Positions 9,355 through 51,500 of a DNA stretch of 64,000 nucleotides are shown one piece after another (position 1 is the stretch's first letter; every line of letters starts with the position of its first letter). The translations under genes were made by a program, and so were the position numbers. The notes under the pieces are model-generated. The model saw nothing but the letters and a program-made list of their open reading frames with translations. It had not been told where the DNA came from and searched no databases. The stretch comes from Geosiphon pyriformis uo1. Taxonomy: Eukaryota; Fungi; Glomeromycota. The stretch covers positions 190,880 through 254,879 of the forward strand of contig JAAOMT010000647.1 of NCBI GenBank assembly GCA_016748015.1, written 5' to 3'.

Positions 9355-10737
9355 TCAATTTAACATGTTGTTGTCGATAATAACGATTGGTTCCAGATTT
9401 TGTGAAATCTTATCTGGTTAGACTAATATTCTCTGTACTCCTAATTGTGGAATATTACTGATAGATGGTAGTGTGATGTTGTGATATGATTTCAGTCAAT
9501 CTCTATGTGCTGCTTTGGTTAAAATTTTGTTATCCAATCTCAATTTGTAAGCTCCATTTTCTAGAATTTCTTCTATGTGAAATGGTCTATCCCATTTGAG
9601 ATCAAATTTTCCGCTCCATTGTTTTTCCGCTTTAGTACAATGTAGTAATATTTTGTCTCCAATCTTAAATTCAACTGGTTTGTCTGGTAGTTAACTATTA
9701 TGTCTTTCTTTCTGTTTTTTTTGTGACTTTTGAATATTATCAGCTGCTCTTCTTTATTTGTTTTCTAGTGTTTCCATTAAGTGATATGTTCTTCTCAGCA
9801 ATGTTTTTCAAAAATTTTCTTCTGTTATTGGTTCAGCTGGATATGTATTAATTTCTCTCTCTACTAGTAATGTTGTTGTTCTCCCATATACTAATTCAAA
9901 TGGTGTTGCTTGTGTAGTATCTTGTTTCATTATCTGATAAGCAAATAGTACTGATGGTATGAACAAATCTCAATTGTTTTGGTTTTCTTGGCTGAACTTA
10001 GCTATTGCTTCACACAATGTTTTGTTGAATCTTTCTACTAATCCATTGGTTTGTGGATGGTATGGTGATGATAATGGTCTCTTGATTCCAAATCTTTGGC
10101 TCAATTCTGTTAATGTTCTGTTCACAAAATGAGTTTCTTGGTCTGATAATAATTTTTTTGGACATCTATGTCAACAAATCAAATCCTGATGAACGAATTT
10201 GGCAATGGATTCTGCATCTGCTCTTTGAATTACTTTCACCTCTGGCCATTTAGTAAGATAGTCCATAGCTACTGCTATGTATCTGTTTCTTCTGCTGGTA
10301 ATTGTTAATGGTCCGACTAAATCAATTCCAATATAGTCGAATGGTTGTCCCACTTTGATTGGTCTTAATGGTTCACTGGGTCTTGTTCCTCCTTTTCGCT
10401 GACAAGCATCACAATTTTGAACATATTAAATGATGTTTGGGTACATTGATGGCCAATAATATCTCTTTCTGGTTCTTTCTATGATTGCTTCTTTGTGAAA
10501 ATGTCCTGCTGTTAGATTTGAGTGCATGTTGAATAATATTGTCTCTTTTTCTGGCTCTGTAATTACTCTGGTTGGTTGATCTGAATTCCTTCTATTTTTT
10601 TGATAAAGAATATTTTGGTGAGTGATAAAATATTTTGATTGTTGTTTGATACTCTTTCGTTCCATTTGAGATAAATTTTCCTTGAACTGTTAAGTGTTTA
10701 TATAATGTTTCAATTGTTGATATTTTTATATGTTCAT
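9355..10737 (-). pseudogene. Element C ORF2 integrase (HHCC, DDE, GPY/F)
   Basis: MHSNLTAGHF..RYYWP..CDAC, GIDLVG, SDQ, GLVERFN. Length 1383 nt. Confidence 0.9.
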
Positions 10738-10800
10738 CTTTTGTTGTATTTTTCCATTGGTATTGTTCTGGTTTTGTTATATTTTTGGGTTGAAATGTTC

Positions 10801-13800
10801 TTAGATTTGTTTCATTTGCAATAAACCATCCGCATTTCTATTGTTTTTTTCTTTTTTATAATGTATAGTATAATTATATGGTGCGAATGCCATTTTTCAT
10901 CTTGAATGTCTTCTATCTCCAAATTCTTGTTTTTGAAGTGATGTTAATTCTTTGTGATCTGTGTACATCTCAAACTTCTGACTCAAGTATTCTTTCCATT
11001 TTATAACTGCCCAGTATATTGCTAAGTGTTCTTGTTCCAGTGTTCCATAGTTTTTTTTGGCTGGTATTAAACCTCTGCTAGCATATGCTACTGGATGTTC
11101 TCTGTCGTCTGGTCCTCTCTAAGATAGTACTGCTTTTAATGCTTGGCTGGATGCATCAGTGGTAATGATGAATGGTTTGCTGTAATCTGGATAGATCAGT
11201 ACTGGAGCTTGGATGAGCTTTCTTTTCAAAATATCAAAAGCTTCTTGTTGACTTTCTGTTCATTCATATTTTGTATTTTTGTTTTGCAGTTGGTTGAGTG
11301 GCTGTGCTATTTTGGAGAAGTTCTTGATAAAACATTGATAGTAGCTGGCAAATCCCAAGAATGATTTCAGTTCTGTCATATTGGTCGGCACTGGAAAGTT
11401 CTTTACTATCTCTATTTTCTCTGGATCCATTTTGATGCCATTTTTACTGACTATGTGTCCCAAGAATTTTAGTTCTGTCTTGCCAAAGAAGCACTTTGTT
11501 GTATTTAATTTTAGTCCTGCTCTTCTTAGTTTTTCAAACACTTGTTAAAGATGATGAAGATGATCATCAAACGTTTTTGAGAATACATTGGTGTTGTCCA
11601 AGTATATAACTACTGATTTCCACAATAAGCCAGTATAAACGATTTCCATTAGTCATTGGAAAGTTGCTGGGACATTGGTTAAGCTAAATGGCATCACTTC
11701 AAATTCAAAATTCTCTTCTTCAATAGTAAATGCCATTTTCTCTTTGTCAACTGGATTCATGGCAACTTGCTAGTAACCACTGTCCAAATTTAATGTGGAG
11801 AACCATTTGTTCCTACTGAAAGCATTGAATAATTTCTGTATTCATGGAGTTGGATAACTGTCTCCACAAGTTACACTATTGAGTTTTCTGTAGTCTACAC
11901 AAAATTGGATTTTTCTATTCTTCTTATGGATGAGTATCACTGGTGACAACCATGGGCTCATTGATGGTTGAATTAGCCCATTGTTAAGCATTCTGTTTAT
12001 CTCTTGATGAATGATTTCATGGCTGGCTGGTAGCACTTTGTATGCTCTTTGTTTGATTGGTATTGCATCTTCAGTCTTGATCTAATGCTGAATAATATCA
12101 GTTTGGCCAAACTCATTTTCGTTGGCAAAGATGTTGTTGAAATTGTTGAGTAACATCTTGAGCTGTATACATTGAAGTGGATCTAAGTTTCCCATGTTTA
12201 TTTGTTTCAATTGTTCTGGTTGGAGCAAATAACATTTGTCTCATCCATAGATTGTTTGTGATGTGATGTCAACATATCCACAAAGTTGTGGAAAGTCTGG
12301 AATGGGATTTGGTTCTATTTCTGTGGTTAAATATCTAATGGTGGTTCCTTCTGGTATGTTGATGACATTGTCAGTGTTGTTGTAGATGAGAATTTTTATG
12401 CTGCTATAGCTTTTGGCTGGTATGTGGAGATTGATCAACCCAATCTCTCCTGATTCACAAAGGTTTGCTTCAGCTTCAAAAATCTGTCCTTGCTCCTTTT
12501 CCTTCCTTTCTATTGCTAGTATGTACTGGCTATATGGTGGAATAGAAATAGCTTGACCAGTTGAGATAATTTCTCCTTAGCCAACAATTTCTGCCTCTGC
12601 CATATTAACAGGTACTTCTATTTTACCCATTGATCTAAATCCTTGTATTCCTCTTGCTGTTATCCCTAATTCCTCTCTATTTCCCACTAATACTAACTGC
12701 ACTATTTTCACCAGAGGCAGAAATATTGCCTGTGCTATTTTTTCATTTGGCTCTATTATATAGGCCTTTTCAGAGTCGTTTTGTAGCATAGCAATGATAT
12801 TTCCCATGTATTCCACATTAATTATTCCTCTTCTGATGTTTATCTATCTTTTTGCTAAATTACTTCTAGATGCTAATTGAACCATTGTTGTTGCTGGAAT
12901 TTTTAAAGCTACTTTCAGATCAATGCAAGTGCATGAATGTGGTTCCAATTTGATGGCATCTTTTCCTGGGTATCTCAGATCAAACTCTGCATCAGTATCA
13001 TGCACGCATTCTGGCATGATATCTTCCCCCTTGTCACTATACTATTTCAACTCCTGCTCCTTGGAGAGATCTGGTAGTGCAATATATTGTTCATAGTTTG
13101 TATCAAAGTTTGGATCTGAGTTGGAATCATTGTTGTTGTTATTGCCATTTTGAATGGAGCTCAAACCATTGTTGTTGTCATCATTGTTGGAGTTTGAATC
13201 GGAATCAAGTGGTGATTCCAATTCTGATGTGCAGCTACTGATTGGTTCTTTCTTTTCGGGAATCATGTAGATTATGCGTGGTGGTGGATTGTAGATGAGC
13301 TCACACTCATTACAATATTAGAAGTTACATGGAATCAAACAGTAATCACATAATTGAGTGTTTAGCTGTGCTAAACGTTCTTCTTGTTCTTCTCTTGTGA
13401 GTGCTAGTCGCTGATAGTGTTCGTGAAATTTTTTTGGGTCATCTTCAACATTGTCAAAGACATCGAATGTTTGGACATATTCTGGTTCTGGCAGTGATAG
13501 TGGGTTGTCCTTAATTTCTCTCAGCTCTTCTGTTGTAGCACCTTTGGACATAGCATATGCCATTCTCCAGATCTCATCTTCATCATGTAGATATTTTTCC
13601 AGGTGTCTTAATGCTCGCTTCCAGATATCATTAATTGGAGTTCCCTTTCGTACCCATTCATTGATCAAGATCGTGTATTAATATGTTTTGTCGCATGCTC
13701 TCCCTCTTCCAGAATTGTCTTTCCACATTCCTTCATCCAAAAGAGTTTCTCCACAGGCTAGACACAAGGTACTGTCCCATTTTTCTATTTTTGGCAGTCA

Positions 13801-17911: not shown

Positions 17912-18830
17912 ACAGCTTATGGAAATTGTTTATACCAGACTGCTATGGAAATCAGTAATTGTGTACTTGGATGACACCAATGTGTTCTCAAAATCATTTG
18001 ATGATCATCTGCATTATTTCCAACAAGTATTTGAAAGACTCAAAAGAGCCGGATTGAAACTAAATACAACTAAGTATTTCTTTGAAAAAACTGAACTCAA
18101 GTTTTTGGGACATGTTGTAAACAAAGATAGTATTAAAACAGATCCAGATAAGATTGCAATAGTAAAGAACTTTCTAGTACCAACCAATTTGACAGAATTA
18201 AGAGCATTTTTGGGATTTGCAGGCAATTATCAATGTTTTATCAAGGAGTTTTCTAAACTGGCTCAGCCACTTCATCATTTACAAACTAAGAATGTCAAGT
18301 ATGAATGAACAGAAGCTCAAAAAAAAGCATTCAATATACTGAGACAAAAGCTTATTCAAGCTGCAGTGTTGATGTATTCAGATCACAGCAAACTATTCAT
18401 TATCATCACCGATGCATCAAGTCAAGCATTGGGGGCAGTACTATCACAAAAAGGACCAGATGAAAGAAAGCATCCAGTAGCTTATGTCAATAGAAGCTTA
18501 AGTCCAGTTGAAAAAAACTATGAAACTCCAGCACTGGAACACTTAGCCATCTATTGGGCTATTACCAAATGGAAAAAATACTTGAGTTAAAAGTTTGATA
18601 TATATACTGATTACAAAGAATCAACTTCAATCTAAAAGCAAAAATTTGGAGACGATCATCATACAAGATAGAAAATAGCACTATCACCATATACATTTAC
18701 AGTACATTATAAAAAGGGAAAAGACAATAGAAATGCTGATAGTTTGTCGTAAATGAGACAAATCTAGAATGTTTTAACTCAAAAATATAACAAAAGACTC
18801 AAATAATTAAAGACAAAAATATAACAAAAG

Positions 18831-20213
18831 ATAAACACACAAAAATACTAACAACTCTAGCATTATATAAATACTCAATTATTCAAAGAGAAATTATCTC
18901 AAAAAAAACAAAATAACATAAAACAGCAATTAAAATATTTTATCAACCACCAAAATATACTTTACTGGAAAAACAGAAAGAATTCAGATAAACCAACCAG
19001 AGTAATCACAGAACCAGAAAAAGAGACAATATTATTTAACATGCACTCAGATCCAACAGCAGGACATTTTCATAAAGAAACAACCATGAAAAAAACCAAA
19101 AAAAGATACTATTGGCCATCAATGTATCTAGACATCATCTAATATGTTCAGAATTGTGATGTTTGTCAGAGAAAAAGAAGAACAAGACTAAATGAACCAT
19201 TAAGACCAATCAAAGTGGGACAACCATTTGATCGAATTGGAATTGACTTAGTCAGACCATTAACAGTTATCAGCAGAGACAACAGATATATTGCAGTAGC
19301 CATAGACTATTTTACTAAATGGCCAGAAGCAAAAGCCATTCAAAGAGCAAATGCAGAATCAGTGGCCAAATTTGTTTACCAAAATTTAATCTGTCAATAT
19401 GGATGTTCAAAAAAATTATTATCAGATCAAGGAACTTATTTTGTGAATAGAACATTAGCAAAATTAAGTCAAAGATTTGGAATCAAAAGACCATTATCAT
19501 TGTCATACCATCCACAAATGAATAGATTAGTTAAAAGATTTAACAGAACATTGTGTGAAGCAATTGCCAAGATCAGTTAAAAAAACCAGGATGAATGGAA
19601 TTTGTTTATACCATCAGTACTATTTGTTTATCGAACAATAAAACAAGATACCACACAAGCAACACTATTTGAATTGGTATACAGTAGAACAGCAACATTA
19701 TCAGTTGAGATAGAAGTCAACACTTATTCAACAGAACCAATAACTAAAGACAATTTTCAGAAAACATTGTTGAGAAAAACATATGACTTAATGGAAACAC
19801 TAAAAAACAAATGGCAAAAAGCAGTTAATAACATTCAAAAGTCACAAGAGAAACAAAAAGAAAGACACAATAACCAACTATCAGATAAACCAATTAAATT
19901 CAAGATTGGAGACAAAGTACTTTTATATTATACTAAAGCAGAAAAACAATAAAGTGGAAAATTTGATCCCAAATGGGATGGACTATTTCACATAGAAGAA
20001 ATTCTTGGAAATAGAGCTTATAAATTAAGATGGGACAACAAAATTTTAGCCAAAGCAGCACATGATGATCAACTGAAACCATATCACCATATAGTATTAC
20101 CATTCACTAGTAATATTCCACAATTAAGAGTACAGAGAATACTAGTCCAACCAGATGAAATTTCATAAGACCTGAAACCAATCATAATCATTAAACCAGA
20201 CACGTAAAATTGA
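18831..20213 (+). pseudogene. Element B ORF2 integrase
   Basis: MHSDPTAGHF, GIDLVRP, SDQGTYF, KWDGLF. Length 1383 nt; start codon mutated to ATA. Confidence 0.88.
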
Positions 20214-20772: not shown

Positions 20773-21658
20773 TGTTACTCATAAAAATATAGGAAATATA
20801 TTAGCATGATTATTAGCCAATCAGAAGTAGGCGTAGTAAATGTGGAATTTCAGGATTCCTCTTAGAAATTGCAGGATTCCAGGAATTTTAGAATTCCCTG
20901 ACGAGGAATTACAGGATTCCAGAATTCCAGGATTCCTCTCAAAAGAATCGCAGAATTCCAGGAATTTCAGGATTCCTGTCATGAAGAATCGAGGAATTGA
21001 GGAATCTCAATTATGTATATATAGCAGTAGTGTTAGAAACAGAAAAAACAGAATTGATACGACAGAATCCTTAGCCCAGAAACACAATTATCAAATAAAT
21101 AATGATTTCATATCTCAATCCACTCCTCACTATCAACACTTCATGTTGATAGTAATTGATACTTAACCATGCTAAAACAATAGCTCTTGATCATGGCTAT
21201 TGACAGGATACTAATCTGCAAATCACCTTGGCTTATTTTTTTTATTTCATTTTCTTTTCTTTCTTTTCTTTTCTTTTTTTTCTTTGTGTTGTTTTGTTGT
21301 TGTATACTAATTGATTAAAAGATTAAGCACTGAGTTATTAATGTCAAGAATAGCCTGGTAAAAGACCCAGAAATAAGGGTAGAATTTTATATATTATCAG
21401 ATAACTTACCAGAAAGGCACAACTGCCAGACTAAATCTGGCCACCATGCTGAGAAAAAAATTGGAAAAACTCTTGGAAAGATACATCTACTATCGACACT
21501 ATTGAATCTCTGTTTATTATACAAAGAACTTAACCCAAAACCTTCAGATATCAAAACCTTCAGATTACCAATACCAATATCCACATTAAGATAGCTTTTG
21601 GAGCACCAAGTTACAGGTTTGTTATTTAATTTCACAGCAGAAATAATCACCTGTAACA
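20773..21658 (+). repeat. 5' LTR of element D (CCAAT box AGCCAATCAG ~20815, GGAATTCC-type repeat array 20844-21005, TATA ~21016)
   Basis: TGTTAC..GTAACA termini; motifs seen directly. Confidence 0.93.
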
Positions 21659-21690
21659 TTTGGTGCTTCCTGTGAGGTATAATCCTACAG

Positions 21691-24600
21691 AGAACCAGCA
21701 CCAACAATACCAAACCAAAAGTGACAGAATCAGAAAATATAGGAGCAAACCATTTAGAATTCACAAAATTCTTATTTCAACACTATTGTCAATACTTGGG
21801 ATTAAACCACAATCATATATCCACCGAATCAGTTTTCAATTTCTACATCAATGAAAAGATTTCCTTTTTATTAGGAACACCAGTGAATACTGAATCAGCA
21901 AGAGAAACTTTCTATAGGGAATTAATTCAAAACACCAACCTACCAACAAATCATAATTTTGCATCCATCATCACTAAGAACAACAAAGAAATTGAACATC
22001 ACACTCAACAAAAATATCCAATTACATATGCTAGTAAAGGCAAGGGAAAATTACAAACACCAGCAGTAACACCCATAAAAATATAGCCACTTACTTAGAA
22101 GAAAAACAGAGTTGAATCCCCAAGCAACCCATCTACCACTATACACCTGGAAGCACCATCAACATATTATCAACAGATGCATTCTCATCAACTGTCACAT
22201 CAGTATTTAGACGATTCTCATTCCAAAGTAGACAAAGAGAGGAATTTAATTTGCGATCATCAACCCCATCAGGACTTCAATCACTACCACCTCCACCAGA
22301 TTTCGGAATCTTTGATCTGTGGGAAGCAGCGGAATCAGAAAAAGAGGAAGAAGAATCAGAGGATCAAGAATTCACTTATCAGCACCCGATCATTGAAAAC
22401 CCAGAAGTTGAAACCCCAAATTTTCAAACTCAGCAAAATCCAGATCTAGAAAATTAGGAAATCGAAACTCTGAATCATCAAAGGCAGAACAATCCAAACC
22501 CCAAATTAATTAATCAGCAAAACTTACTTCCAGTAATTGTCATTGATCAACTGCCAATTAATCCTATAGCCGAACTCATACAGCAGCCACTTCAACTACC
22601 ACCTCAACAACCAGTACAACAACAACTGTTTCAACAGCCACCACAACTACCTAACTTAGATCCAATGGCCTACACACCAATCACAAAACTTGACAACTTT
22701 ACTGGTGAAGAGGATGACACTCAAGTATGGCTGAATGATGTAGAAAAAGCCATCGCAACCAACAGATAAAATGATGCCTAAGCAATGCAAGCCATTCCCT
22801 ACTTTCTCAAGGATACTGCCGATTCATGGTACCAGAGCTTAATTAATAAACCACAAGATTTCAATGCCTTCAAAATGGAATTCCTAAGATACTTCAGCAA
22901 CAATAACAGTATCAATTGCCTAGTCAACACATTCACCACCATAAAACAAGGAGAAACAGAAGCCATCACCACTTACTTAGGACGCTTCCATTGAAATCTG
23001 TGCCAAATTCAAGCAATTGACGCCAACTATTTCACAGCACCACAGATACTCAATTATTTTATCCATGGCCTGTGCAGCAGCATCTTGCAACATGTATGTT
23101 CGTTGCATCCAGGCATCCTACAAGACGCAGTTACACACACTAGAGATTTTGAATCCATTGAGTCAGAGGTTAACCATGCCCAAGCCATTAATCTAGTAAT
23201 GAATGGATCATCTGAATTGGATTCCAAATTGGAGAAGTTTAGTAAATCAATTAATAAGAGATTGGAAGAATACTTAGCTGACAATCATGCCATTTATCAG
23301 TCTCCACAATGACACAATAATCAAAAAAACTCTAATCGTGCCCAAAATCAACCACGTTCATCTTCATCAACCAATTAAAAGTGGCAACAGGAAATGCGTA
23401 TCTGCCACTATTGTGGTAAACAAGAACATATCCAAATTGACTGTTGCCAGTGTTTAAATAACCAATGATCAGGAAATCAATAACAAAATCCCATTGCTGG
23501 TTTCAAACTCTGAATCAGTACCCAAATCAAAACCAATCCGCTTACCTACCAGTGACGTAGTCATCAGTCTATCAGTCTCTGGTGTATCAAGCTCCAATTT
23601 ATCAACCACAGCCACAAGTGATTTATCAACAACTGCAGCCACAAATAATTTATCAGTCTCAACCATCAATTCAAACACCACTCCAAAATTCAGCTACGAT
23701 GACATCAAGAAACCCAAGACCCAGAATTGCTCAAAATTGGAGATCAGCGATGATTGTTCATCAACCGATCCCCAGTTCCTCTCACCAAAGCTCAGAATTT
23801 CATTCTCGGAATTCGGGTACTGGCACCACCCAACACCCAAATTCCCAAAATTATTTAAGTCTCCTGGTTACTCCAGAAGACGCCACATTTAGCAACTTAG
23901 AATCAGACTAACAGACAACACTTACCAACAACATCTTACCAACAATGGTCACTAATAACAAATTATTAGCAGCCATCTTCTTTTTTGAACTGGAGGAACC
24001 ATCCTGATTACCATTATTCAGTGGAGCCGCCCTCAAAGAAAGATCCATCGCAGTGATGTACACTGATGCGAAAGTAGATAAACATCCAATCAAACTCATT
24101 CTTGATAGCAGTTCAGCAGGCAGCATCATCATGTGACAACTTATAGACCAATTAGGTCACCAAGTTGATTGGGCTGCTAGTGCTCATATAATCACTGCTA
24201 ACGGAGCGACTAAAACCCCAATTGGTGAGATAGATAACTTTCTATTTGAAGTCAATGGCATCATCACTCCTATCAAAGTCTTGGTGATGGAAGCCCCCCA
24301 ATATCAAGCTCTAGTTGGTAATGACTGGCTGTTCAAAACCAACATTATTCTGGACTGGATGATACAAAAGCTCCAACTAAGTGACAATGGTCAACACACA
24401 TATGTGCCAACTATGTGTGGCCACTTCAAGGTTCCTTTAAGAGAAAAACCATTGATAGAGCTGGAGGAAGAAAAGAAGCCTATCTGGAAAGCTTTTCAAG
24501 TCACTTGGACCAATGCTAATCACAATGAACTACCACCCATACTCTCATAGAATAACAAGGGAAAAAAGAAAGAAGAAGAACTTACCTGGAAGCCAAACCT

Positions 24601-27600
24601 AGAAGCATGGAGTGAGGATGAACTAAGTAAATCAACCACCAAGTGGACCTGGGAAGAAAAGTGAAAAGGGAAAAAAAAAGAAGACGACCAACCACCAAGC
24701 ACTAATTCAGCTCATATCCCATACTCTACACTGCCACAAACAGGATACTATCGACCCAAACTGGTATGTGTCAGTTGTAGTAAGAAATTGTCAACAATGG
24801 GCGCATGCTGTAGTAAGGACGAAGAATAGACAACAGCAACTGAATACTACTGTCGCCCATGCATCCTTGAATGTGATGGACAACTGCCAAAAATGGGAAA
24901 ATGGGACGGTATCTTGTGTCTAGCCTGTGGAAAGACTCTTTTGGATGAAGAAATGTGGAAAAACATTCCTGGAAGAGGGGAAGCATACAACAAAACATGC
25001 TAATACACGATCCTAATCAATGACTGGATATGAAAGGGAACTCCAATCAACAACGCCTGGAAGCAAACATTAAGGCGCCTAGAAGGATACCCACACAACA
25101 AAGATGAGATCTGGAGAATGGCATATGTTATGTCTGAAGGTGCTACAACAGAGAAGCTAAGAGAAATTAAGGACAACCCACTATCATTGCCAAAACCAGA
25201 ATACATCCAAATGTTTGACATCTTTGGCAACATTAAGGATGACCCAGAAGAGTTTCACGAACACTACCAGCGACTAGCATCCACAAGAAAAGAACAAGAA
25301 GAACATTTAGCACAGCTAAACACTCAATTATGTGACCACTGTTTGATTCTATGTGACTTCCAATATTGTAATGAGTGTAACCTTATCTATAATCCACCAC
25401 AATGCATAATCTACATGATTCCCAAAGAGAAAGAACCAATCAGCAGCTGCACATCAGAATTGGAATCACTGCTCAATTCTGATTCAAATTCTGACAATAA
25501 TGATAACAACAATGGTTTAAGCTCTGTTCAAAATAGCAATGACAATGACAATGATTCCAACTCAGATCCAAACTCCAATACAAACTATGAACAATATATT
25601 GTACTACCAAATCTTTTTAAGGAGCAGAAGTTGAATTGGTATAGTGACAAGAGGGAAGGTATCATGTCAGAACACACACATGATACTGATGCAGGGTTTG
25701 ATCTGAGATACCCAAAAAAAGATGCCATCAAATTAGAACCACATTCACACACCTGCATTGATCTGAAAGTAGCACTAGAAATTCTAACAACAACAATGGT
25801 TCAATTAGCATCTAGAAGTAGTTTAGCGAAAAGAGAGATTAATATAAGAGGAGGAATAATTGACATGGGATATGTAGAAAATATCATCACTATGCTACAA
25901 AATGACTCAGAAAAGACCTATATAATAGAACCCAACAAAAAGATAGCACAGACAATATTCTTGCCTCTGGTTAGAGTAGCTCAGTTAGTATCAGTAGGAA
26001 AGAAGGAGGAATTAGGAATAACAACAAGAGAAATACAGGGATTCGGGTCAACAGGTAGAATAGATGTACCAGTTAATATGGTGGAGAAAGAAATTATTGG
26101 CCAAGGAGAAATTATCTCAACCGGTCAAGCTATTTTCATTCCATTATATAGTCAGTACATACTAGCAATAGGAAGGAAAAAAAAGGAGCAAGGACAGATT
26201 TTTGAAGCTGAAGCAAACCTTTGTAAATCAGGAGAGATTGGGTTGATCAATCTCCACATACCAGCCAAAAGCTATAGTAGCATAAAAATTCTCATCTACA
26301 ACAATACTGGCAATGTCATCAACATACCAGAAGGAACCACCATCGGATATTTAACCACAGAAATAGAAGACCAACCACCAAATCCCATTCCAGACTTTCC
26401 ACAACTTTGTGAATATGTTGATATTACATTACAAACAATTTATGGATGAGACAAATGTTATTTGCTTCAACCAGAACAATTGGAACAAATGAACATGGGA
26501 AACTTAGATCCACTCCAATGTATGCAGCTCAAGATGTTACTCAACAATTTCAATGACATCTTTGCCAGCGAAAATGAGTTTGGCTGAACTGACATCATCT
26601 AGCATCAGATCAAAACTGGAGATGCAATGCCAATTAAACAAAAAGCATACAGAGTACCGCCAGCCAGCCACAAGATCATTTGTCAAGAGATAAACAGAAT
26701 GCTTAACAATGGGCTAATTCAACCATCAATGAGCCCATGGTTATCACCAGTAGTACTCATCTGTAAAAAGAATAGAAAAATCCAATTTTGTGTAGACTAC
26801 AGAAAACTCAATAGTGTAACTCGTGGAGACAGTTATCCAACTCCACAAATACAGGAATTATTTGATGCTTTTGGTGGGAACAAATGATTCTCAACATTAG
26901 ATTTGGACAGTGATTACTGGCAAGTAGCTATGAATCTGGTTGACAAAAAGAAGATGGCATTTACTACTAAAAAAGAGAATTTTGAATTTGAAGTGATGCC
27001 ATTTGACTTAACCAATGCTCCAGCAACTTTCTAATGGCTAATGAAAATCATTTATATTGACTTATTGTGGAAATCAGTAGTTGTATACTTGAACAACACC
27101 AATGTATTCTCAAAAATGTTTGATAATTATCTTCATTATCTTCAACAAGTGTTCAAAAGACTAAGAAGAGCAGGACTAAAATTAAATACAACAAAGTGCT
27201 TCTTTGGCAAAACAGAACTAAAATTCTTGGGACACATAGTCAGCAAAAATGGCATCAAAACGGATCCGGAGAAAATAGAGATAATAAAGAACTTTCAAGT
27301 ACTGACCAATATGACAGAACTGAAATCATTCTTGGGATTTGCCAGCTACTATCAACATTTTATCAAGAACTTCTCCAAGATAGTGCAGCCACTCAACCAA
27401 CTGCAAAACAAAAATACAAAATATGAATGGACAGAAAGTCAACAAAAAGCTTTTGATATTCTGAAAAAAAAGCTCATCCAAACTCCAGTACTGATCTATC
27501 CAGATCACAGCAAACTATTCATCATTACCACTGATGCATCCAGCCAAGCATTAGGAGCAGTACTATTTCAGAGAAGACCAGACGGCAGAGAACATCCAGT

Positions 27601-27889
27601 AGCATATGCCAGCAGAGGTTTAACACCAGCCAAAAAGAACTATGGAACACTGGAACAAGAACACTTAGCAATATACTGAGCAGTCATAAAATAGAAAAAA
27701 TACTTGAACCAGAAATTTGAGGTGTACACAGATCACAAAGGATTAACATCACTTCAAAAACAAGAATTTGGAGATGGAAGACAGTCAAGATAGAAAATGA
27801 CACTTGCACCATACAATTATACTATACATTATAAAAAAGAAAAAGACAATAGAAATACGGATGGTTTATTGTGAATGAGACAAATCTAA
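21691..27889 (+). pseudogene. Element D ORF1 gag-PR-Cys-rich-dUTPase-RT-RNaseH
   Basis: Capsid 22665-23312, Zn knuckle CHYCGKQEHIQIDC, protease LILDSSSAG, 443-aa ORF 25118-26449 with dUTPase, RT/RH 26627-27889. Confidence 0.92.
25660..26060 (+). pseudogene. dut: dUTPase domain within ORF1 of D (homologues in A, B, C, F and H)
   Basis: All five trimeric-dUTPase motifs in order: DAGFDL, ASRSSLA, GIIDMGY, KIAQ, REIQGFGSTG. Confidence 0.93.
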
Positions 27890-27952
27890 GAACATTTCAA
27901 CCCAAAAACATAACAAAACCAGAACAATACCAATGGAAAAATACAACAAAAG

Positions 27953-29335
27953 ATGAATATACAAAAATATCAACAATTACAACATTATATAAACACTCAA
28001 TAGTTCAAGGAGAATTTATCTCAAATGGAACAAAAGAGTATCAAACAACAATTAAAATATTTTATTACTCACTAAAATATACTTTATCAGAAAAATAGAA
28101 GGGATCTAGATCAACCAACCAGAGTAATTACAGAGCCAGAAAAAGAGACAATATTATTCAACATGCACTTAAATCCAACAGTAAGACATTTTCACAAAGA
28201 AGCAACCATGGAAAGAACCAAAAAGAGATACTATTGGCCATCAATATACCCAGACATTATTCAATATGTTCAAAATTGTGATGCTTGTCAGCAAAGAGAA
28301 GAAACAAGACCCAGTGAACCATTAAGACCAATCAAAGTGGGACAACTATTCAACCATATTGAAATTGATTTAGTTAGACCATTAACAATTACCAGCAGAG
28401 GAAACAGATACATAGCAGTAGCTATGGACTATCTCACTAAATAGCCAGAAGTGAAAGCAATTCAAAGAGTGAATGCAGAATCCGTTGCCGAATTCGTTCA
28501 TCAGGATTTGATTTGTCAACATGGATGTCCAAAAGAATTATTATCAGACCAAAGAACTTATTTTGTAAACAAAACATTAACAGAATTGAGCCAAAGATTC
28601 GGAATTAAGAGACCACTATCATTACCATACCATCCACAAACCAATGTATTAGTCGAAAGATTTAACAGAACATTGTGTGAAACAATAGCTAAACTCAGCC
28701 AAAAAAACCAGAATGATTGGGATTTGTTGATACCATCAGTACTATTTGCTTATCAGACAATGAAGCAAGATACTATACAAGCAACACTATTTGAATTGAT
28801 ATATGGTAGAACAGCAACACTACCAGTGGAAATAGAAGTCAGCACATACCCAACCAGACCAATAACAGAGGAGAATTTCAAAAATACATTGTTGAGAAGA
28901 ACATATGACTTAATGGAAACACTAGAAAACAAACAACAAAGAGCAGTTGATAACATACAAAAGTCACAAGACAAACAAAAAGAAAGACATAATAACCAAC
29001 TACCAGATAAACCAGTTGAATTCAGGATTGGAGACAAAGTATTACTATATTATACCAAATCGGAAAAACAATGGAGTAGAAAATTTGATCCCAAATAGAA
29101 TGGATCATTTCACATAGAAAAAATTCTAGGAAATGGAGCTTACAAATTAAGATTGGATAACAAAATTTTAACCAAAGCAGCACATGGAGATCAACTGAAA
29201 CCATATCACAACATCACACTACCATCTATTAGTAATATTTCACAATTAGGAGTACAGAGAATACTAGTCCAACCAAATAAGATTCCACGAGATCTAGAAC
29301 CAATCATTATTATTGACAACAACACATTAAATTAA
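27953..29335 (+). pseudogene. Element D ORF2 integrase
   Basis: ATG at 27953 (MNIQKYQQL). HHCC, IDLV, SDQ and VERFN motifs. Length 1383 nt. Confidence 0.9.
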
Positions 29336-29359
29336 TCCATCAAAAGAATATATAAAGAC

Positions 29360-30005
29360 ATGGTAGACGTGACAGGAAATATCAGAAAAATGGAAATTAC
29401 AGACAACATTTACTCACTAGCACAACAACTCTTTCAATTAATCCAACACTAGGAAATGGAGATTACAATCAATCAACAAACCATTCAATATCAAGATACT
29501 AAAAAGACATTGCAACTCAGAACACAGAAAAAACTGAAAATACTGTGGACAAAATCATGGCAAAAGTAAAATTAGCAATAAAAGAGTCGACAAAAGAGTC
29601 ACTATATCAAGAGTTGACTAAAGAAACTTGAAACTGGTGGATACAACAATTTCCACGAAACTATTGTTATTTTTACTTAGGATGACATGTAAATATCCAG
29701 AATCTATATATGGATAAGACAAAATGATTATTTGACAAAAGAATACTACAATAATTAGAACATTTTGTGGGAAAAAACAGGCCCAAGCCATATACCAAAT
29801 ACACACAGCATTTCAGGATAGACCAGAAATATTGCTCAACAAAGCAATGGATATGATTACCAGTAATCAATTGGGAAAAATCACCAATGCTCAATTTAAA
29901 GAATTACAGACCCAAATAACACAAGTAATTCTCGAAAACAAAATCCAGGAAATACTTCAAGAGGGGGAGTTAAATGAGTTGGATTTCAACAGAGCTCAAT
30001 ATTAA
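29360..30005 (+). pseudogene. Element D ORF3, unknown protein
   Basis: Homologous to 57322-57981; small deletions and stops. Confidence 0.72.
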
Positions 30006-30018
30006 AAAGAGGAAATAA

Positions 30019-30915
30019 TATTACTCATAAAAATATAAGAAATATATTAGCATGATTATTAGCCAATCAGAAGTAAGCATAGTAAATGTAGAATTCCAGG
30101 ATTCCTCTCAGGAATTGCAGGATTCCAGGAATTTCAGGATTCCCCGACAAAGAATTGCAGGATTCCAGAATTGCAGAATTCCTCTCAAAGGAATTGCAGA
30201 ATTCCAGGAAGGATTCCTGTTGTGAAGAATTGAAGAATTGAGGAATCTCAATAATGTATATATAGCAATAGTATTAGAAACAGAAAAAACAGAATTGATA
30301 TGACAGAATTCTTAGCCCAGAAACACAATCATCAAATAAATAATTATTTCATATCTCAATCCACTCCTTACTATCAACACTTCATGTTGATAGTAATTGA
30401 TACTTAACTACACTGAAACAATAGCTCTTGATTATGGCTATTGACAGGATACTAATCTACAAATTGCCTTGGCTTATTTTCTTTATTTCATTTTCTTTTC
30501 TTTCTTTTCTTTTCTTTTCTTTCTTTGTGTTGTTTTGTTGTTATATACTAATTGATTAAAAGATTAAGCACTGAGTTATTGACATCAAGGATAGTCTGGT
30601 AAAAGACCCAGAAATAAGGGTAGGATTTTATATATTATCAGATAGCTTACCAGAAGGGCATGACTGCCAGACTAAATCTGGCCACCACACTGAAAAAAAA
30701 ATTGGGAAAACTCTTGGAAAGATACATCTACTATTAACACTATTGAATCTCTGTCTGTTATACAAAGAACTCAACCCAAAACCTTCAGATATCAAAACCT
30801 TCAGATATTAAAACTTTCAGATTACCAATACCAACATCCACATCAAGATAGCTTTTGGAGCACCAAGTTACGGATTTGTTATTTAATTCCACAGCAAAAA
30901 TAATCACCTGTAATA
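30019..30915 (+). repeat. 3' LTR of element D
   Basis: Follows the PPT; colinear with 20773-21658. Confidence 0.93.
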
Positions 30916-31939: not shown

Positions 31940-34296
31940 TTCCAGCTCCATTCAAATAGCAATAATAATAATGATGATTCAAACTCTAATGCCAACTTCA
32001 AACAATATATCATGCTCCCTAATCTCTCTAAGAAGTAAGAACTCAAATGGTTCAGCAATAATGATGAAAGCATTATGCCAAAACATGTGCATGATACCAA
32101 TACAAGATTTGATCTGAAATATCCAGGAAAAAAAGCCATAAAATTGGAACCATATTTACACATCTATATTGATCTCAAAGTAACAATAGAAATTCCAATA
32201 ACAACAATGATTTAGCTAGCTTTTAGAAATAGTTTAGCAAAAAAAGGGATCAATATCAAAGAAGGAATAATTGATGCAGGATATGTGAAAAATATTATTA
32301 CAATGCTACAAAATGACTCAAAAAAGGTCTACATCATAGAGCCCAACAAAAAAATAGCACAGGCAATATTTCTGCCTCTGGTTAAAATAGCTCAGTTAAT
32401 ATCAGTGAGAAAAGGAGAAATTAGAGATTACAGCTAAAGAGATTAGTGAATTTAGATCCACAGAAAAAATAGATATACCAGTTAATATGGCAGAAGAAGA
32501 GATTATTGACAAAAGAAAAATTATCTCCACTCATCAACCAATCTCTATTTCACTATATGGCCAATATATATTAGCCATAGAAAAGAAAGTAAAGGATTAG
32601 GCCCAAATGTTTAAAGCAGAAACTAAAATTTGCAAATCAGGAAAGATTGGACTTACGAATTTGTACATATTAGCCAAAAGTCTAAAACACATAAAAATTC
32701 TCATTTACAACACAACTGGAGATGTTATCGAAATACCAAAATGAATCATTATCAGATATATAAGCACAGAAGTAGAAAATTAACTACCAAACACCATTCC
32801 AGATTTTCTACAGCTTTGCAGATATGTAAATATCACATCACAAACCATCTATAGATAAAACAAATGCTATTTGCTCCAATCAAAACAATTAGAACAAATG
32901 AACATAAAAAACTTAAACCCACTTCAACATATACAACTCAAAATGTTACTCAACAACTTCACCAACATTTTTGCAAGTAAAAATGAATTTGCCAGAACTG
33001 ACATAATCCAATACCAGATCAAGATGGGAGATGCAATGCCAATCAAACAAAAAGCATACTAAGTACTACTAGCAAGTCATGAAATCATCTAACAAGAGAT
33101 CAATTGGATGTTAAACAACAAGTTAATTCAACTATTAATGAGTTTATAGTTGTCACTAGTGGTATTAATCTGTAAAAAAATAGAAAAATCAGTTTTTGTG
33201 TGGATTACAGAAAGCTTAATAAAGTAACTTATGGAGACAGTTATTCAACTTTATGAATTCAGGAACTATTCGATACTTTCAGTAGGAACAAATGGTTTTC
33301 AACACTGAATTTAGACAGTGGTTATTGGCAAGAAGTCATGAATTCAGCTGACAAAAAAAAGACTGCATTCACAATAAGAGAAAGAAATTTTGAATTTGAA
33401 GTAATACTATTTGGCTTAATAAATACTCCAGCCATGTTCCAATAGCTAATAGAAATTATTTACACTGAACTACTATGGAAATCAGTAGTTGTGTACTTAG
33501 ATAACACCAATGTGTTTTCCAAGACATTTGATGATCATTTACACTATCTCCAACAAGTGTTTGAAAGACTAAGAAGAGCCAAATTAAAGTTAAATATGAC
33601 CAAGTGTTTCTTTGGAAAAACTGAACTCAAGTTCTTAGGACATATTATAAGCAAAGACAGTATCAAAACAGATCCAGACAAGATTGAAACTGTCAAGAAC
33701 TTTCTAGTACCAAATAATCTCACAAAACTAAGAGCATTCTTGGAATTTGCAGGGTACTATCACCACTTTATTCAGAACTTTTCAAAAATAGCTCAACCAC
33801 TCTACCAGCTTCAAGCCAAAAATGTGAAATACAAATAGACTGGAAAGCAACAAAAAGCTTTTAATATTTTGAGAAAAAAACTTATTCAAGCTCTAGTACT
33901 GATCTATTCAGATTACAACAAGCTATTTATCATCACAACTAATGCATCAGGTCAAGCATTGGGAGCAGTACTATTACAGAAAAAACTGGATGAAAGAAAA
34001 TGTCCAGTAGCTTATATCAGCTGAAGCTTAAGTCCAGCAGAAAAAAATTATAGAACACTAGTACTAGAACACTTAGCTATTTATTGAGCAGTTATAAAAT
34101 AGAAAGAATACTTAAGCCAGAAATTTGATATATACACTGATCACAAAGAATTGACATCAATCCAAAAACAAAAATTTGGAGATGACTGCCATACCAGATA
34201 GAAAATAGAACTTTTACCATTCAAATATATAGTACATTATAAAAAGGGAAAAAAAATGAAAATGCTGATGGTTTATTGTAGATAAAACAAATTTAA
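31940..34296 (+). pseudogene. Element A ORF1 3' part: dUTPase-RT-RNaseH (heavily decayed)
   Basis: RFDLKYP, IIDAGYV, YLDN, RAKLKLNMTKCFFG, TNASGQALGAVL. Confidence 0.85.
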
Positions 34297-34327
34297 GAAT
34301 ATTTCAACCCAAAAATATAACAAAAAG

Positions 34328-35707
34328 ATGAATACATAAAAATATTAACAACTCCAATATTATATAAATACCCAATTGTTCAAGGAGAAATTATTTCAAA
34401 AAAAACAAAACAACATCAAACAACAATCCAAATATTTTACCACTCACCAAAATATACTTTATTAAAAGAACAAAAGAAATCTAGATCAACTAATCAGAGT
34501 AATTACAGAATTAGAGAAAGAAACAATATTATTCAACATGCATTCCAATCTAACAACAGGACATTTTCACAAAAAAACAACTATAAAAAAAACTAGAAAG
34601 AGATACTATTGGCCATCAATATATCCAGACATTATTCAATATGTGCAAAATTGTGATGTTTATCAGAAAAGAGGAAGAACAAAACCAAGCAAACCACTAA
34701 GACCAATTAAGGTGAAACAACCATTTAATCACATTAGAATTGACTTAGTCAAACCATTAACAATTATCAGCAAAGATAACAGATATATTGTAGTAGCCAT
34801 GGATTATTTTACTAAGTAACCAGAAGCAAAACCCATTCAAAAAACAGATGCAAAATCCATTGCTGAATTCATTCACCAAGATTTGATTTGTTAACACAGA
34901 TGTTCAAAAGAATTACTATCCGACCAAAGAACTCACTTTGTAAATAGAATATTGGCAGAATTAAGCCAAAAATTTGAAATTAAATGACCATTATTATTAC
35001 CATATCATCCACAAACCAATAGCTTAGTCAAAAAATTCAATAGAACACTGTGTGAAGCAATCACTAAAATCAGTTAAAAAAACCAGAATGAATGAAACTT
35101 GTTTATACTATTAGTATTATTTGCTTATTGAACAATAAAGCAAGATACTATACAAGCAACACCATTTGAATTAGTATATGATAGAACAACAACACTATTA
35201 GTTAAAATAGAAATCAACACATACTCAACAGAACCAATAACAGAAGACAATTTTCAAGAAACATTATTAAGAAGAATGTATAACTTAATAGAAATCTTGA
35301 AAAACAAATGACAAAAAGTAGCTGACAACATTCAAAAGTCACAAACAAAACAAAAAAAATGGCATAATAACCAATTACCAAATAAACCAGTTAAATTCAA
35401 AATTGGAGACAAAGTACTTTTATATCATACCAAAGTGAAAAAACAATGGAATAGAAAATTTGACCCCAAATAGAATGGACCATTTTACATAGAAAAAATT
35501 CTAAAAAATAAAGCTTATAAATTAAGATGGGATAACAAAATATTAACCAAAGCAGTACATGGTAATTGACTAAAACTCTATCACAATATAGCACTATCTA
35601 TTAATAATATTCTACAATTGGAAGTACAGAAAATACTAGTTTAACCAGAAAAGATTTCACAAGATTTAGAACCAATAATAATCATTGACACAAACATATT
35701 AAATTAA
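34328..35707 (+). pseudogene. Element A ORF2 integrase
   Basis: MHSNLTTGHF..RYYWP; ORF fragment 34538-34819. Confidence 0.85.
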
Positions 35708-46965: not shown

Positions 46966-47011
46966 NNNNNNNNNNNNNNNNNNNNTTTCTTTTTTTTTTT
47001 TATTTTTTTTT

Positions 47012-47109: not shown

Positions 47110-48495
47110 TTAAGTATTTAGGTTGGAAGGTTGTTCAATGACAACTATTGGTTCTAAGTTTCAGGGAATATCTTCGGGACTGACCAAAAGGGAATGTGTA
47201 TCAATTTGTGGAATTAATGGTTCAAGATTGTTTCTGGAATGATAGTATTTCAAACGATCTCCATGTGCAACTTTTGCTAGGATTTTGTCATCAAGTCTTA
47301 GCTTGTATGATCCGTTGCTTAGGACTTCATGGATAAAAAATGGTCCATCTCATTTATTTTCAAATTTTCTACTCCATTGTTTTTTAGCTTTAGTTTTGTG
47401 TAAGAGAACTTTGTTTCCAATTTTGAATTTATTGGTGACTGAAGGCAATTTGTCATTATGCCGTTCTTTTTGTTGAGCTTGGAAGTGTTCAATATGGGTG
47501 GCTGCTATTCGTTGTTTTCCTTCTAATGTGCTAAGCAGAGTGTAGGCTCTTCGCTGAAGCATTTCTTGGAAATTGTTTTCATTGATCAGTTGTGCTGGGT
47601 ATGTTTCCACTATAAAACTAATTGGTAATGTTGCTGTCCTTCCATAAGTTAAATCAAATGGTGTGTGTTTCGTGGTATCTTGTTTTAATGTTCTATATGC
47701 TAGTAACACTGATGGAATAAAGAGATCCCATTCTTGCTCAAAATTGGTTGAGACTTTGGCTAATGACTCACACAATGTTCTGTTAAAATGTTCCACAAAT
47801 CCATTTGTTTGTGGATGGTAGGGTGAAGACAGAGGTCTTTTGACATTAAATCATTCACAAATTTCTTGTATCAGGTTGTTCACAAAGTGTGTTCTCTGAT
47901 CGGATAAAAGTTCAATTGGACATCCATGTTTACAAATGATGTTTTTGTAGATAAAATTTGCTACTGATTTTGCATCTGCTCGTTGAATGGCTCTGGCTTC
48001 AGGCCATTTAGTAAGATAGTCTACAGCTACTGCAATATAACAGTTTTCTTGAGTGGTAATAGATAGTGGTCTGACTAAATTGATACCAACTCTGTCAAAA
48101 AGCTGTCCAACTTTGATTGAATTTAAAGATTCTGTAGGGCAAGTTCCTCCTTTTCTTTGACAACTATTACAAGATTCGACATATTCGTAAATGTCTTTTT
48201 TCATTCGAGGCCAAAAGTAGTATTTTAGTGTTCTTTGGGTGGTGCTATCTTTTCCGAAGTGTGCTGATGAAGAATCTGAGTGCATATTGTATAAAATGGT
48301 CTCTTTTTCCTGTTCTTGTATTAATCTGAGTGGTTTGGTTGGGTTTTTGAAATTTCGATGATAGATAATATTGTTGTGTAGAAAATATTGTTTGGCTTGT
48401 TGTTGTAATTGATGTTTTTTGTCTGGGGATCAATCTGTTGGGATTGTTAATGTCTCCAAATATTGTTTGAGATTGTTGTAGTTTTCGGGGTTTAT
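47110..48495 (-). pseudogene. Element H ORF2 integrase
   Basis: MHSDSSSAHFG..YYFWP..CNSC, GINLVRP, SDQRTHF, DGPF. Length 1386 nt. Confidence 0.9.
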
Positions 48496-48544
48496 TGTTT
48501 GTTGTTTTAATGCTGTTAATTCAAATGGGTGTTGGTTTTGTTTT

Positions 48545-51500
48545 CTAATTTTGCCTCATTCTTGAAAGACAATCAACATTGGTGTGGAGTTTTCCTGATT
48601 TGTGATGTACGATATATTGGTAATTAACTAAAAATCTTGTCCATCGGGTTTGTTTTGCATTCAGCTGGGTGTTTTTGTTTTGAAGCCATTTAAGTCCAAT
48701 ATTATCAGTGATAATATTAAATTTTTTGGGTCTGAGGTAAAGGTTGAAGTGATGTAGGGTCCAGATTACTGCTGCGGTTTCTAATTCTGTTGTGGGGTAG
48801 TTTTTTTTGGCTGGCTTTAATGTTCTATTAGCATAAGCAATTACTTGCTTATTTCCATTGTCATCTAACTGTGATAGGATGGCACCAAAGACAGTATAAG
48901 AAGCGTTAGTTGCTAACCAGAATTGGTTGCTGAAATCTGGGTAGGCGAGGATTGGAGCTGTTGTGAGTTTTTTCTTAAGTATCTCGAAGGCATTTTGGTG
49001 TTCTTCTGTCCATTTGTATTCGACATTTTTAGTAGTGAGCTGGTTGAGGGGTTTTGCAATTTCTGAGAATTCTTTGATGAATTTTCAGTAATAGGATGCT
49101 AATCCAATAAATCCTCTTAATTCTGTGGTATTTCGTGAAGTCTTGAAATTCTTGACAGTACTGATTTTTCTGGGGTCTGGTTTAATTCCATCTTTGCTAA
49201 CAATGTGACCAAGAAAAGCTAAACTTGTTTTTCTGAAGTAGCATTTTTCAATGTTCAGTTTCAATCCTGCTTTCCGTAATTGTTAAAAAACTTCTCGCAG
49301 GTGAATTAAATGTAGCTCGAAAGATGATGAATAAACATCAGTGTCATCAAGATAAACTACTACTGATTTTCAAAGGAGGTCTTTGTAAACAACATCCATG
49401 AGTCTTTGGAATGTTGCTAGTGCATTGCATAATCTGAAAGACATTACATTAAATTTGTAATTTCTTCCTTGAGTAGTGAATGTTGTTTTGGAGTGGTCTT
49501 TGGGATCCATAGCAACTTGCCAGTATCCACTTTCTAAATCTAATGTTGAAAAGTATTTGGACTTTCCAAGGGCATCCAACATGTTATCAATTCGGGGAAG
49601 AGAATAGGCATCCTCAATGGTGACACTGTTGAGTTGTCAGTAATCAACACAAAATTATATCTTTCCATTTTTCTTTTTAACTAAGACCACAGATGAGGCC
49701 CATGGGCTCATTGATGATTGAATAAGCCCATTGTTAAGCATTCATTGTACTTCTTCTCAGATAAATTGGTGACTTTCTGGGGCAACTCAATAGGCTTGTT
49801 GTCGCCTTGGTTTGGCATTTCTTGTATAGATTTGGTGTTGAACCAAATCAGTTCTTCCTAAGTTATTGTTGTTTTCGGCAAAGATGTCAGTAAATTCTGC
49901 AATTAGCTCTTTGAGCTGGGTCTGTTGTTGTGGTTCAAGTTGTTCCATGTTAATTCGAGATAGTTTTTCTATGACAACATGGTAGTTTTCGAAGCTGGGA
50001 TTTGAGTTGGTTTTTGGTATTAAATGTCCAATAATTTCAGAGAAATCGGGAATTATTTGGGGTAATTTTTGTTGAAATATATTACTGTGAATAACTCCAA
50101 TTTCTAAATTATTTAATAAAATTATGGGGTAATTATTGGGGTTGTAAAAAGTAACTTGGACTTTCTTTGTTCCTTCTGGAATATAAATGTTTGGGATCAA
50201 AATATTATGTTCTAAGCAGACTTGTTCATTGGACTCAAAAATTTGTTGTGTGGTTGTTGGCTTTGAGCAGATGTAGATTTCCGGATATTCTCCAAAGGGT
50301 AAGATAGTAATCAGTTGTGGAAGTCTGAGAATCTGGTGGGATTCATTCTATGTGTTAAGAGCTATATTAATTGGAACTGTGAATCATCCAGTTGAACCAA
50401 AACCTTGGGTTCCTCTATCACTTTTTCCTAATTGTTCTCTTTGATTGACTAGTTGCAAACCCGAAATGTTGATTAAGGGTAGGTAAATAGCTTGGGCAAT
50501 TTTTTCAACATGTTCAATCTTGACTGGTTTGTCAGTTTCATTTTGAAGCATCACTGTTATGTCTCCAATATATCCAGCATTGATTATTCCTCTTCTGACA
50601 TTGATTTCTTTGCTTGCCAGAGAGGACCAGGAGGCGATTTGAACCATTGCTCTTGGCGGGATTTCAAGTGCAATTTTGAGGTTGATTTTTGTGTGAAATT
50701 TGGGTTTGAGAACAAGAGTATCCTTGCCTGAATATCTTAGGTCATATCCAGTATCAATTTCGTGTGCTTTTTCAGGTTTTATTCCTTGTCCATTGTTGTT
50801 GAAGTATTTAAGTTGTAAGGCAAGCTGATTTTCGATAAGGTAGATGGGTGTTGTTTCAATTTCTTCCGTTTTTTCAGGTTCTCCAAATTTAATTTCATTC
50901 TCATCATTTTCGCTGGGCAAGGGGATACTAAGAGCATAGCATTCAGGACACTATTGTTCATTGCAAGGCATAATGCATTCTTCACATAGTTTAATGTTCA
51001 TTTGCTCTAATCATTGAATTTAAGCTTTTTGGGTCGGGTAGGTGTAACTTGCAATTTGGTGGTAGACTTTTACTTCATCTTTGTAATCGAATCCAGCTAA
51101 TTCCATAGTGTATTCAATGTATTCTGCTTCCTTCATTTGACGGACATCTTCCTTGGTAGCTCCATTAATTAATGCCATTGCTAAGTCGAAAATCATCTTG
51201 GCATCATGAGGGTAGTGATAAAGTTTGTTGAGAGCACTGTTGTATGCTGCATTAAAAGGTGTTCCTCTTTTTACTTTTTCTGAAATTGATAAAACATATT
51301 GACAGGTCTGATCGCAGACGCCTCCTCTCATTGCTACATCAATCCAATTGCATTCTTTTGGTAGCATATCTCCACAAGTCAAACAAGAGATGTTGTCCCA
51401 TTTTCCGCTCTTTTTTATTAGATGGCCCCATTACTCTCTGTGGCAAGCCTTGCAATAATAACAAGTATAATTCTCATATTCTTCTTCAGGTAAAATGCAG

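Follow-up and report, generated by a model that had tools for sequence, protein, structure and literature searches.

Organization of the window and of element D

We analysed a 64,000-nucleotide stretch of contig JAAOMT010000647.1 of the fungus Geosiphon pyriformis (hereafter the window). The window is a nested stack of LTR retrotransposons, heavily C-to-T decayed, with a CpG observed/expected ratio of 0.23. The accessible part of one source gives LTR sequence as 41% of the G. pyriformis genome (PMC11952901), and for an open stretch of element D each of the best 120 homologues is a G. pyriformis gene model. Element D carries, in this order, LTR, gag, protease (PR), dUTPase, reverse transcriptase (RT) and RNase H (RH), then, beyond a break, integrase (IN), followed by a third ORF and the second LTR. 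Its features are:

20773..30915, + strand: element D, a full-length, decayed Ty3/gypsy LTR retrotransposon with a 4-bp target duplication
24065..24331, + strand: aspartic protease domain (Pfam PF13975; P0003 residues 437-525)
25667..26056, + strand: dUTPase domain between PR and RT (Pfam PF00692; P0003 residues 971-1100)
26516..27886, + strand: reverse transcriptase-RNase H (Pfam), with 8 decay stops
27887..27889, + strand: conserved TAA closing RT-RH
27890..27952, + strand: A-rich, unstructured spacer of 63 nt, with a second in-frame stop at 27914
27953..29335, + strand: integrase cistron with its own ATG and 4 internal decay stops (H2C2 zinc finger, rve core, SH3)
29360..29362, + strand: ATG of the third ORF, 24 nt past the IN stop

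The order PR-RT-RH-IN and the gypsy-type RT/RH are those of Ty3/gypsy elements; the usual in-frame position of IN within pol, which is not formally defining for that group, is not found here. Pfam recognized H2C2, rve and SH3 on IN, and nothing else. TG...CA LTR ends and a target duplication are present in elements D, C, F and H, the ends being partly decayed. The 4-bp duplications (20769-20772/30916-30919 for D, 7816-7819/17912-17915 for C, 45460-45463/55176-55179 for H and 38996-38999/58823-58826 for F) are compatible with decayed CG-centred sites, at n=4 and without statistics. The region between PR and RT (24500-26500) encodes about 700 residues with Cys-rich repeats and the dUTPase, and pieces of it account for hundreds of annotated hypothetical genes in Geosiphon. 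In element H a 20-base N gap follows a poly-A run downstream of IN (46966-46985).

The junction between RNase H and integrase in six copies

Six copies in the window retain the junction between RH and IN:

Copy D, + strand: TAA 27887, 63-nt spacer, ATG 27953, IN of 1383 nt
Copy F, 55848..57297, + strand: TAA 55848, 64-nt spacer, ATG 55915, IN of 1383 nt
Copy A, 34294..35707, + strand: TAA 34294, 31-nt spacer, ATG 34328, IN of 1380 nt
Copy B, 18765..20213, + strand: TAG 18765, 63-nt spacer, ATA 18831, IN of 1383 nt
Copy C, 9355..10803, - strand: TAA 10803-10801, 63-nt spacer, ATG 10737, IN of 1383 nt
Copy H, 47110..48547, - strand: TAG 48547-48545, 49-nt spacer, ATA 48495, IN of 1386 nt

Copies D, F, C, A and B form one family of three subfamilies, in which D, F and C are about 90% alike and A and B are 75-83% alike to the rest. 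Copy H represents a second family, with 55-57% protein identity to D and with gag to RH in a single frame. The spacers of D, F, A and B consist of 58-60% A and are nearly unfolded according to folding predictions. The family-1 alignment contains 3 indel events in about 2 kb of coding sequence and 4 distinct ones in the 63-nt spacer, so that the spacer is under no frame constraint.

When the coordinates were re-derived, stop, spacer and start of all six copies lay where an earlier note on this DNA had placed them, except that for C and H the note had given the low coordinate of the stop codon. Its statement that the spacer is not frame-conserved is borne out by the indels. Its claim of further stops in the spacer holds in the RH frame for five of the six copies, F being the exception, and in the IN frame for four of the six, not for A and H. 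The integrase "ORF" of 1380-1386 nt has the length claimed but is not open, each copy containing 4-13 internal decay stops.

The spacer of D holds an out-of-frame ATG at 27933, a site with CpG-type variation among copies. We considered this ATG of D, F and C as a relay uORF and dropped the idea because the base frequencies (46% and 21% of the depth with C or A at base 2 and 3) resemble those of a decaying CpG. Position 27887 is absent from the 40 of 284 variant rows listed for the contigs of run X1, as are some known decay stops; a narrower X1 comparison listed no variant at 27887-9, and the known variable sites 27868 and 27872 were unlisted as well.

The shared stop and decay

In so decayed a genome the RH stop might itself have arisen by C-to-T mutation of a CAA or CAG codon, or might stem from one dead master copied many times. 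Shared decay stops are indeed common among the family-1 copies, and when the five copies were aligned, decay to stop had affected 31 of 230 alignment cells at CAA codons and 21 of 50 at TGG codons. Yet across 680 aligned codons of RT-RH and IN there is not one at which all five copies have a stop, the most-shared control stops occurring in four of five, at two TGG codons, and copy H of the second family has its stop at the same place. These results uphold the argument of the earlier note that independent mutation of the same codon is unlikely. That argument excludes independent decay but was incomplete, as the stop of a single dead master could have been inherited by all six copies. This point is settled by intact relatives, which are split likewise: among the matches listed, 20 relatives without internal stops have the same break (see below). 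Decay is thereby refuted at the level of the lineage, and we regard it as an extremely improbable explanation.

A separate integrase in relatives

We considered 700 IN homologues of 253-807 aa. The best 120 of these measure 390-453 aa and have no listed RT domain, and the named fungal proteins among them are from Rhizophagus irregularis. A Met occupies the column of D's ATG in 103 of these best 120, the other 17 starting later, and 101 of the 120 have D, E or N as their second residue, which is the NatB acetylation pattern. Atlas neighbours of IN are Mucoromycota clusters of 392-451 aa. Among 200 longer homologues, only three score near the stand-alone INs; all three are gene models, from Cetraspora and Rhizophagus, in which conserved parts of RT-RH or IN are left out, and true RT-RH-IN fusions begin at about 35% identity.

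Because the starts of the IN homologues are gene-caller calls, they were checked at the DNA level in soil metagenomes. An alignment of 53 stand-alone INs served as the query, a choice biased towards split forms, and counts over related loci overstate independence. We kept 80 of 269 loci among the matches listed; L085-L091, weak matches on long phage contigs, were left out. RT-RH lies upstream of IN in 36 of the 80 and IN before RT in 2, the order of Gmr1-like elements, while 42 lack an upstream RT-RH match and fall outside the following count. RH and IN are split at 30 of the 36 loci and fused at 6, and at 20 of the 30 split loci neither matched stretch contains a stop, although one of these, L048, has a frameshift in IN (all among the matches listed). 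Also among the matches listed, all 29 loci with an IN identity of at least 41% are split, and the six fused loci, at 34-37%, are the most distant relatives. Four full IMG/VR matches (27-32% identity) are all fused. The start is less certain at L009, L043, L045, L051 and L053, where we chose the ATG closest to the predicted position.

Quick maximum-likelihood trees of RT and IN, with moderate SH-aLRT support (80-94), agree with this picture. In the RT tree 27 of 28 split RTs fall on one branch (SH-aLRT 94), the exception, L058, being a fragment; in the IN tree 31 of 32 split INs do so (92), the exception being L079, and plant elements (Vitis, Ilex) adjoin the split group. An RT-RH query involving no selection on IN left 41 of 150 representatives usable, the rest being crowded by multi-RT gene models. 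Of these single-RT proteins, 28 are fused and 13 are without IN. Six of the 41 end 5-16 residues past RNase H, and some of them could be truncated. All six belong to the split branch (26 rows, support 84), which includes one fused protein, P0465, with a very short linker. In a smaller tree five of the six fall in the split branch (80), with P0465 outside. The simplest reading is a single origin of the split from a fused ancestor.

A sense codon at the RH stop followed by an open in-frame linker, which according to the earlier note would speak against a separate integrase, is absent in every close relative checked on DNA. The intact relatives, the trees and the conserved start all back its claim that IN is a cistron of its own and not a product of polyprotein cleavage, which we consider very probable. 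As judged from sequence comparison, this is a fungal Ty3/gypsy lineage in which the polymerase frame ends at RNase H and the integrase is a gene with its own start codon. The separate-IN organization is lineage-wide.

Other features of these loci deserve mention. L078, L052, L055 and L064 have gag-PR or unrelated sequence before IN and no RT match on the contig, and are possible RT-less derivatives. At L044 (252-2436) IN is preceded by two ORFs joined by ATGA overlaps, without RT; one of the two has an Mrr-like restriction endonuclease domain (PF13156, E 5e-9). C-terminal tails follow RNase H in L013, L014, L018 and L026 (235-314 aa) and in L037 (589 aa) and are in part Cys/His-rich; those of L013 and L037 gave no Pfam match. 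A third ORF lies past IN in L013:6633-7064, L014:5890-6333, L034:1557-2357, L037:8758-9450, L079:5960-6652 and in the window from 29360 onward. It overlaps IN in L034 and L079, begins 24 nt past the IN stop in D, and had no Pfam match in the three cases tested.

Recoding or splicing at the junction

If the RH stop were bypassed by programmed readthrough or frameshifting, an RT-RH-IN fusion would be produced. In copies A and H the open IN frame extends upstream past the RH stop (+1), and among the matches listed 3 of 30 loci are compatible with readthrough and 8 of 30 have the IN frame open to the stop. Moreover, junctions of the readthrough type appear to be used elsewhere in the lineage: four elements have a break between gag-PR and RT with an in-frame TGA-CTA and a stop-free linker, which serves as an internal control for recoding. 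These breaks (L019:3290-3341, L037:3358-3394, L004:870-1008 and L048:1585-1879) are candidate readthrough sites at an unusual PR|RT position, TGA-CTA being a type II readthrough motif in the available text of PMC3542737; as they resemble readthrough sites, we dropped them as extra cistrons. At RH|IN neither an in-frame stop-free continuation nor a C after the stop is the rule. Among the matches listed, C follows the stop at none of 30 loci, spacer lengths modulo 3 are distributed 11/8/11, and 19 of 30 loci fit neither readthrough nor frameshifting; copies D, C, B and F carry IN-frame stops within the spacer. The recoding signature present at PR|RT of these elements is missing at RH|IN, and we consider a fusion made in this way very unlikely. 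We judge similarly improbable an intron that removes the stop and joins RH to IN, for which the PR/RT intron of Ogre would be a precedent (PMC6317226, in the part available). All six copies do have a GT 23 nt before the stop, five have an AAG before the start, and some NCBI gene models join RH and IN. However, this GT is part of a conserved RH codon rather than a donor consensus, a splice from it to the AGs present would break the frame in D, F, C and A and keep it only in H, the joining models cut away conserved RH or IN sequence, and a fusion would not conserve the Met. The clean removal of the stops by an intron, named in the earlier note as contrary evidence, is thus not observed, as no shared in-frame intron fits the six copies at the level of sequence. 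Given that the signature of readthrough or frameshifting is absent at RH|IN and that no in-frame intron fits the six copies, IN begins at its own AUG.

From the RNase H stop to the integrase start

The spacers at the 30 split loci among the matches listed range from -14 to 727 nt. Stop and start overlap at 7 of the 30 junctions, three times as ATGA (L024, L027, L079) and once as TAATG; L009 and L051 contain spacer ORFs (relay) whose stops overlap the IN ATG. Among the matches listed the IN start is at most 100 nt from the stop at 23 of 30 loci, and at 10 of 30 it overlaps or is within 30 nt (the 7 overlaps and spacers of 24, 27 and 30 nt), the window copies having at least 31 nt. In the 20 spacers of at most 200 nt among these matches there are 8 upstream ATGs against 15.9 in dinucleotide shuffles (2/1000). 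A purine is present at -3 of 44 of 51 IN starts, compared with 149 of 252 internal ATGs (among the matches listed).

One subgroup has an additional feature. At 15 loci among the matches listed, a stem of 12 pairs, with a bulged A and an invariant bulge of 11 nt, is situated 0-30 nt ahead of the IN ATG (for example L013:5185-5238). In this structure, which was drawn from these same sequences, 96.4% of cells are paired and 7 of 12 pairs show compensatory change, with lower values in shuffled or slid controls. A covariance model added L067 and L008, in both cases before IN; the rest of the 349 kb searched, of which the window was a part, gave no further match. The stem loci are thus L007, L010, L012-L015, L018, L021, L022, L026, L029, L038, L041, L054, L059, L067 and L008. 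Seven loci, including 4 with the stem, gave no match in Rfam. The stem shows that in this subgroup selection acts on the RNA immediately ahead of the IN start. Another shared motif preceding the ATG, unmatched by the stem model, occurs at L071:1-50, L075:1-78 and L037:7390-7432.

The earlier note had proposed reinitiation, internal initiation or a subgenomic RNA without ranking them; the separate start that all three require stands, and we now place termination-reinitiation first, with a confidence that we would call even. According to this proposal the RH stop would be non-leaky and a minority of 40S subunits would stay on the RNA. These would cross the short, A-rich and AUG-poor spacer, or step back 1-14 nt in the overlap forms, and restart on the same RNA at the AUG with a purine at -3. 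Free integrase would then be less abundant than RT and would arise with no cleavage by the protease. Lacking a Gag tether, it would have to find the cDNA in another way, through binding to its own RNA or to the ends of finished cDNA. The ATGA and TAATG overlaps, the relay ORFs, the short spacers, the AUG depletion and the A at -3 point in this direction, and AUGA/UAAUG stop-restart is documented for fungal victoriviruses and SART1 (PMC10275272, PMC3542737 and PMC5972666, in the parts available). Other observations fit reinitiation less well. The window spacers of 31-64 nt exceed the roughly 20-30 nt tolerated by the TURBS type (accessible part of PMC10275272), and no UGGGA precedes the stop at any of the 30 loci among the matches listed or in any of the six copies. 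Folding z-scores show no general structure around the junction, and three spacers longer than 200 nt, with 27 ATGs against 26.5 expected among the matches listed, would be impassable to simple scanning. Start context and AUG depletion are also expected of a subgenomic RNA leader, the short stop-start distance may be a legacy of a fused ancestor like P0465, and reinitiation after long ORFs is described as rare without special signals in the available text of PMC5972666.

A subgenomic RNA as the template for IN, arising at an internal promoter or through a splice that joins the 5' LTR to an acceptor ahead of IN, is possible but rather improbable. Retroviral env is read from a spliced RNA. Such an RNA would account for the long, AUG-rich spacers (365-727 nt) along with the good start context, and some spacers are U- or pyrimidine-rich. 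Among the matches listed, a branch-plus-acceptor pattern is found in 10 of 14 motif-bearing loci against 6.0 in shuffles (11/300), these being related sequences, but in the motif-free loci it is found in 12 of 30 against 11.6, and 35 of 51 ATGs have a YAG within 40 nt, against 33.5 expected. An excess of the pattern over coding sequence (22 of 44 against 123 of 376 among the matches listed) was rejected, as it is gone against shuffles outside the motif subgroup. ATGA/TAATG overlaps and relay ORFs are not predicted by a subgenomic RNA. Internal ribosome entry on the full-length RNA, through the A-rich spacer or, in one subgroup, through a structured element before the AUG, seems to us unlikely. 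IRES activity of A-rich sequences is known from yeast work. Entry of this kind is independent of spacer length, and the covarying stem of the 15 loci would be a candidate element; however, neither the window nor most of the split loci among the matches listed have the stem, and stop/start overlaps are again not predicted. Different subgroups may use different routes, with termination-reinitiation remaining the reading that we prefer.

Implications

In the textbook view LTR elements deliver integrase within a Gag-tethered polyprotein. With a successful lineage that makes integrase separately, one may ask by what route ribosomes in a fungus gain access to a cistron that follows an ORF of 4-5 kb, and what brings free integrase to the cDNA of its own element. 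The junctions are a natural source of elements for reinitiation or internal entry, among them a small covarying RNA without Rfam match. The organization described here also bears on the relationship between Ginger1 transposons and gypsy integrases. It further calls for caution in using stand-alone rve genes as a Ginger marker in mycorrhizal genomes, where they may often belong to LTR elements. A bolder reading, which we find doubtful, is that this is an old, widespread and polycistronic LTR lineage of Glomeromycota/Mucoromycota whose bulged stem would be a new class of RNA element starting a free, untethered integrase, and whose CpG-targeting, YPYY-type gene would be a living intermediate between gypsy and Ginger1.

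A Ty3/gypsy organization with a separate IN is apparently undescribed so far. We found no description of such a lineage in the literature searched, including the available parts of PMC5751038, PMC5911963, PMC6431247, PMC6839031, PMC6631646 and bioRxiv 2021.03.30.436303; subscription papers, supplements or Repbase may hold one.

Comparison with known systems

These elements share with Ty3/gypsy elements (Metaviridae) the LTRs, gag and the order PR-RT-RH-IN, and the dUTPase between PR and RT is placed as in other fungal elements. Standard IN, however, is the last domain of the pol polyprotein, whereas here it is a separate cistron. Surveys of fungal and plant LTR elements place IN within pol (PMC3248453, PMC6317226), and in the two-ORF forms of plants the break follows GAG or GAG-PROT instead of RH (PMC6317226), as far as the available parts of these papers go. 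In Ogre/Tat elements the pol region is likewise broken by a non-coding stretch, but the Ogre break is a spliced intron that separates PR from RT (available part of PMC6317226). Gmr1-like elements are also Ty3/gypsy elements with a rearranged IN, which they keep in the polyprotein, and they form a separate branch in the RT and IN trees.

Ginger1 DNA transposons have a stand-alone gypsy-like integrase gene too (Bao et al. 2010, PMC2836005, accessible part). Its YPYY motif before the zinc finger can be set beside Y/F12-P19-F/Y37-Y/F45 in the best 120 of 700 homologues here, a comparison by text description, and the same source, in the part available, gives the motif for some gypsy lineages as well. 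The CG-centred 4-bp targets of Ginger1 (PMC2836005, available text) compare with compatible target duplications at four sites here. The elements of the window nevertheless have LTRs, gag and RT and no terminal inverted repeats, and their IN of about 420 aa is without a C-terminal OTU/Ulp1 domain (Pfam). Judged by the description of Ginger1, membership thus fails on the LTRs, the RT and the absent OTU/Ulp1 tail.

AUGA and UAAUG overlaps also occur in the victoriviruses and hypoviruses, RNA viruses of fungi, where they yield a separate, scarce enzyme (available part of PMC3542737). These viruses, and the TURBS of caliciviruses, differ in requiring near-zero spacing and an upstream pseudoknot or UGGGA motif, neither of which was found in the present elements. 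In LINE-1 and SART1 an enzyme ORF also stands behind a stop, with a UAAUG overlap in SART1 and a 63-nt spacer in LINE-1 according to the sources in part available; both are non-LTR elements in which the split separates ORF1 from the whole enzyme. The spacer of 63 nt shared with LINE-1 is probably a coincidence, as the spacers of the relatives span so wide a range. LINE-1 has been proposed to reinitiate across its spacer (PMC5972666, accessible text) and is the nearest precedent.
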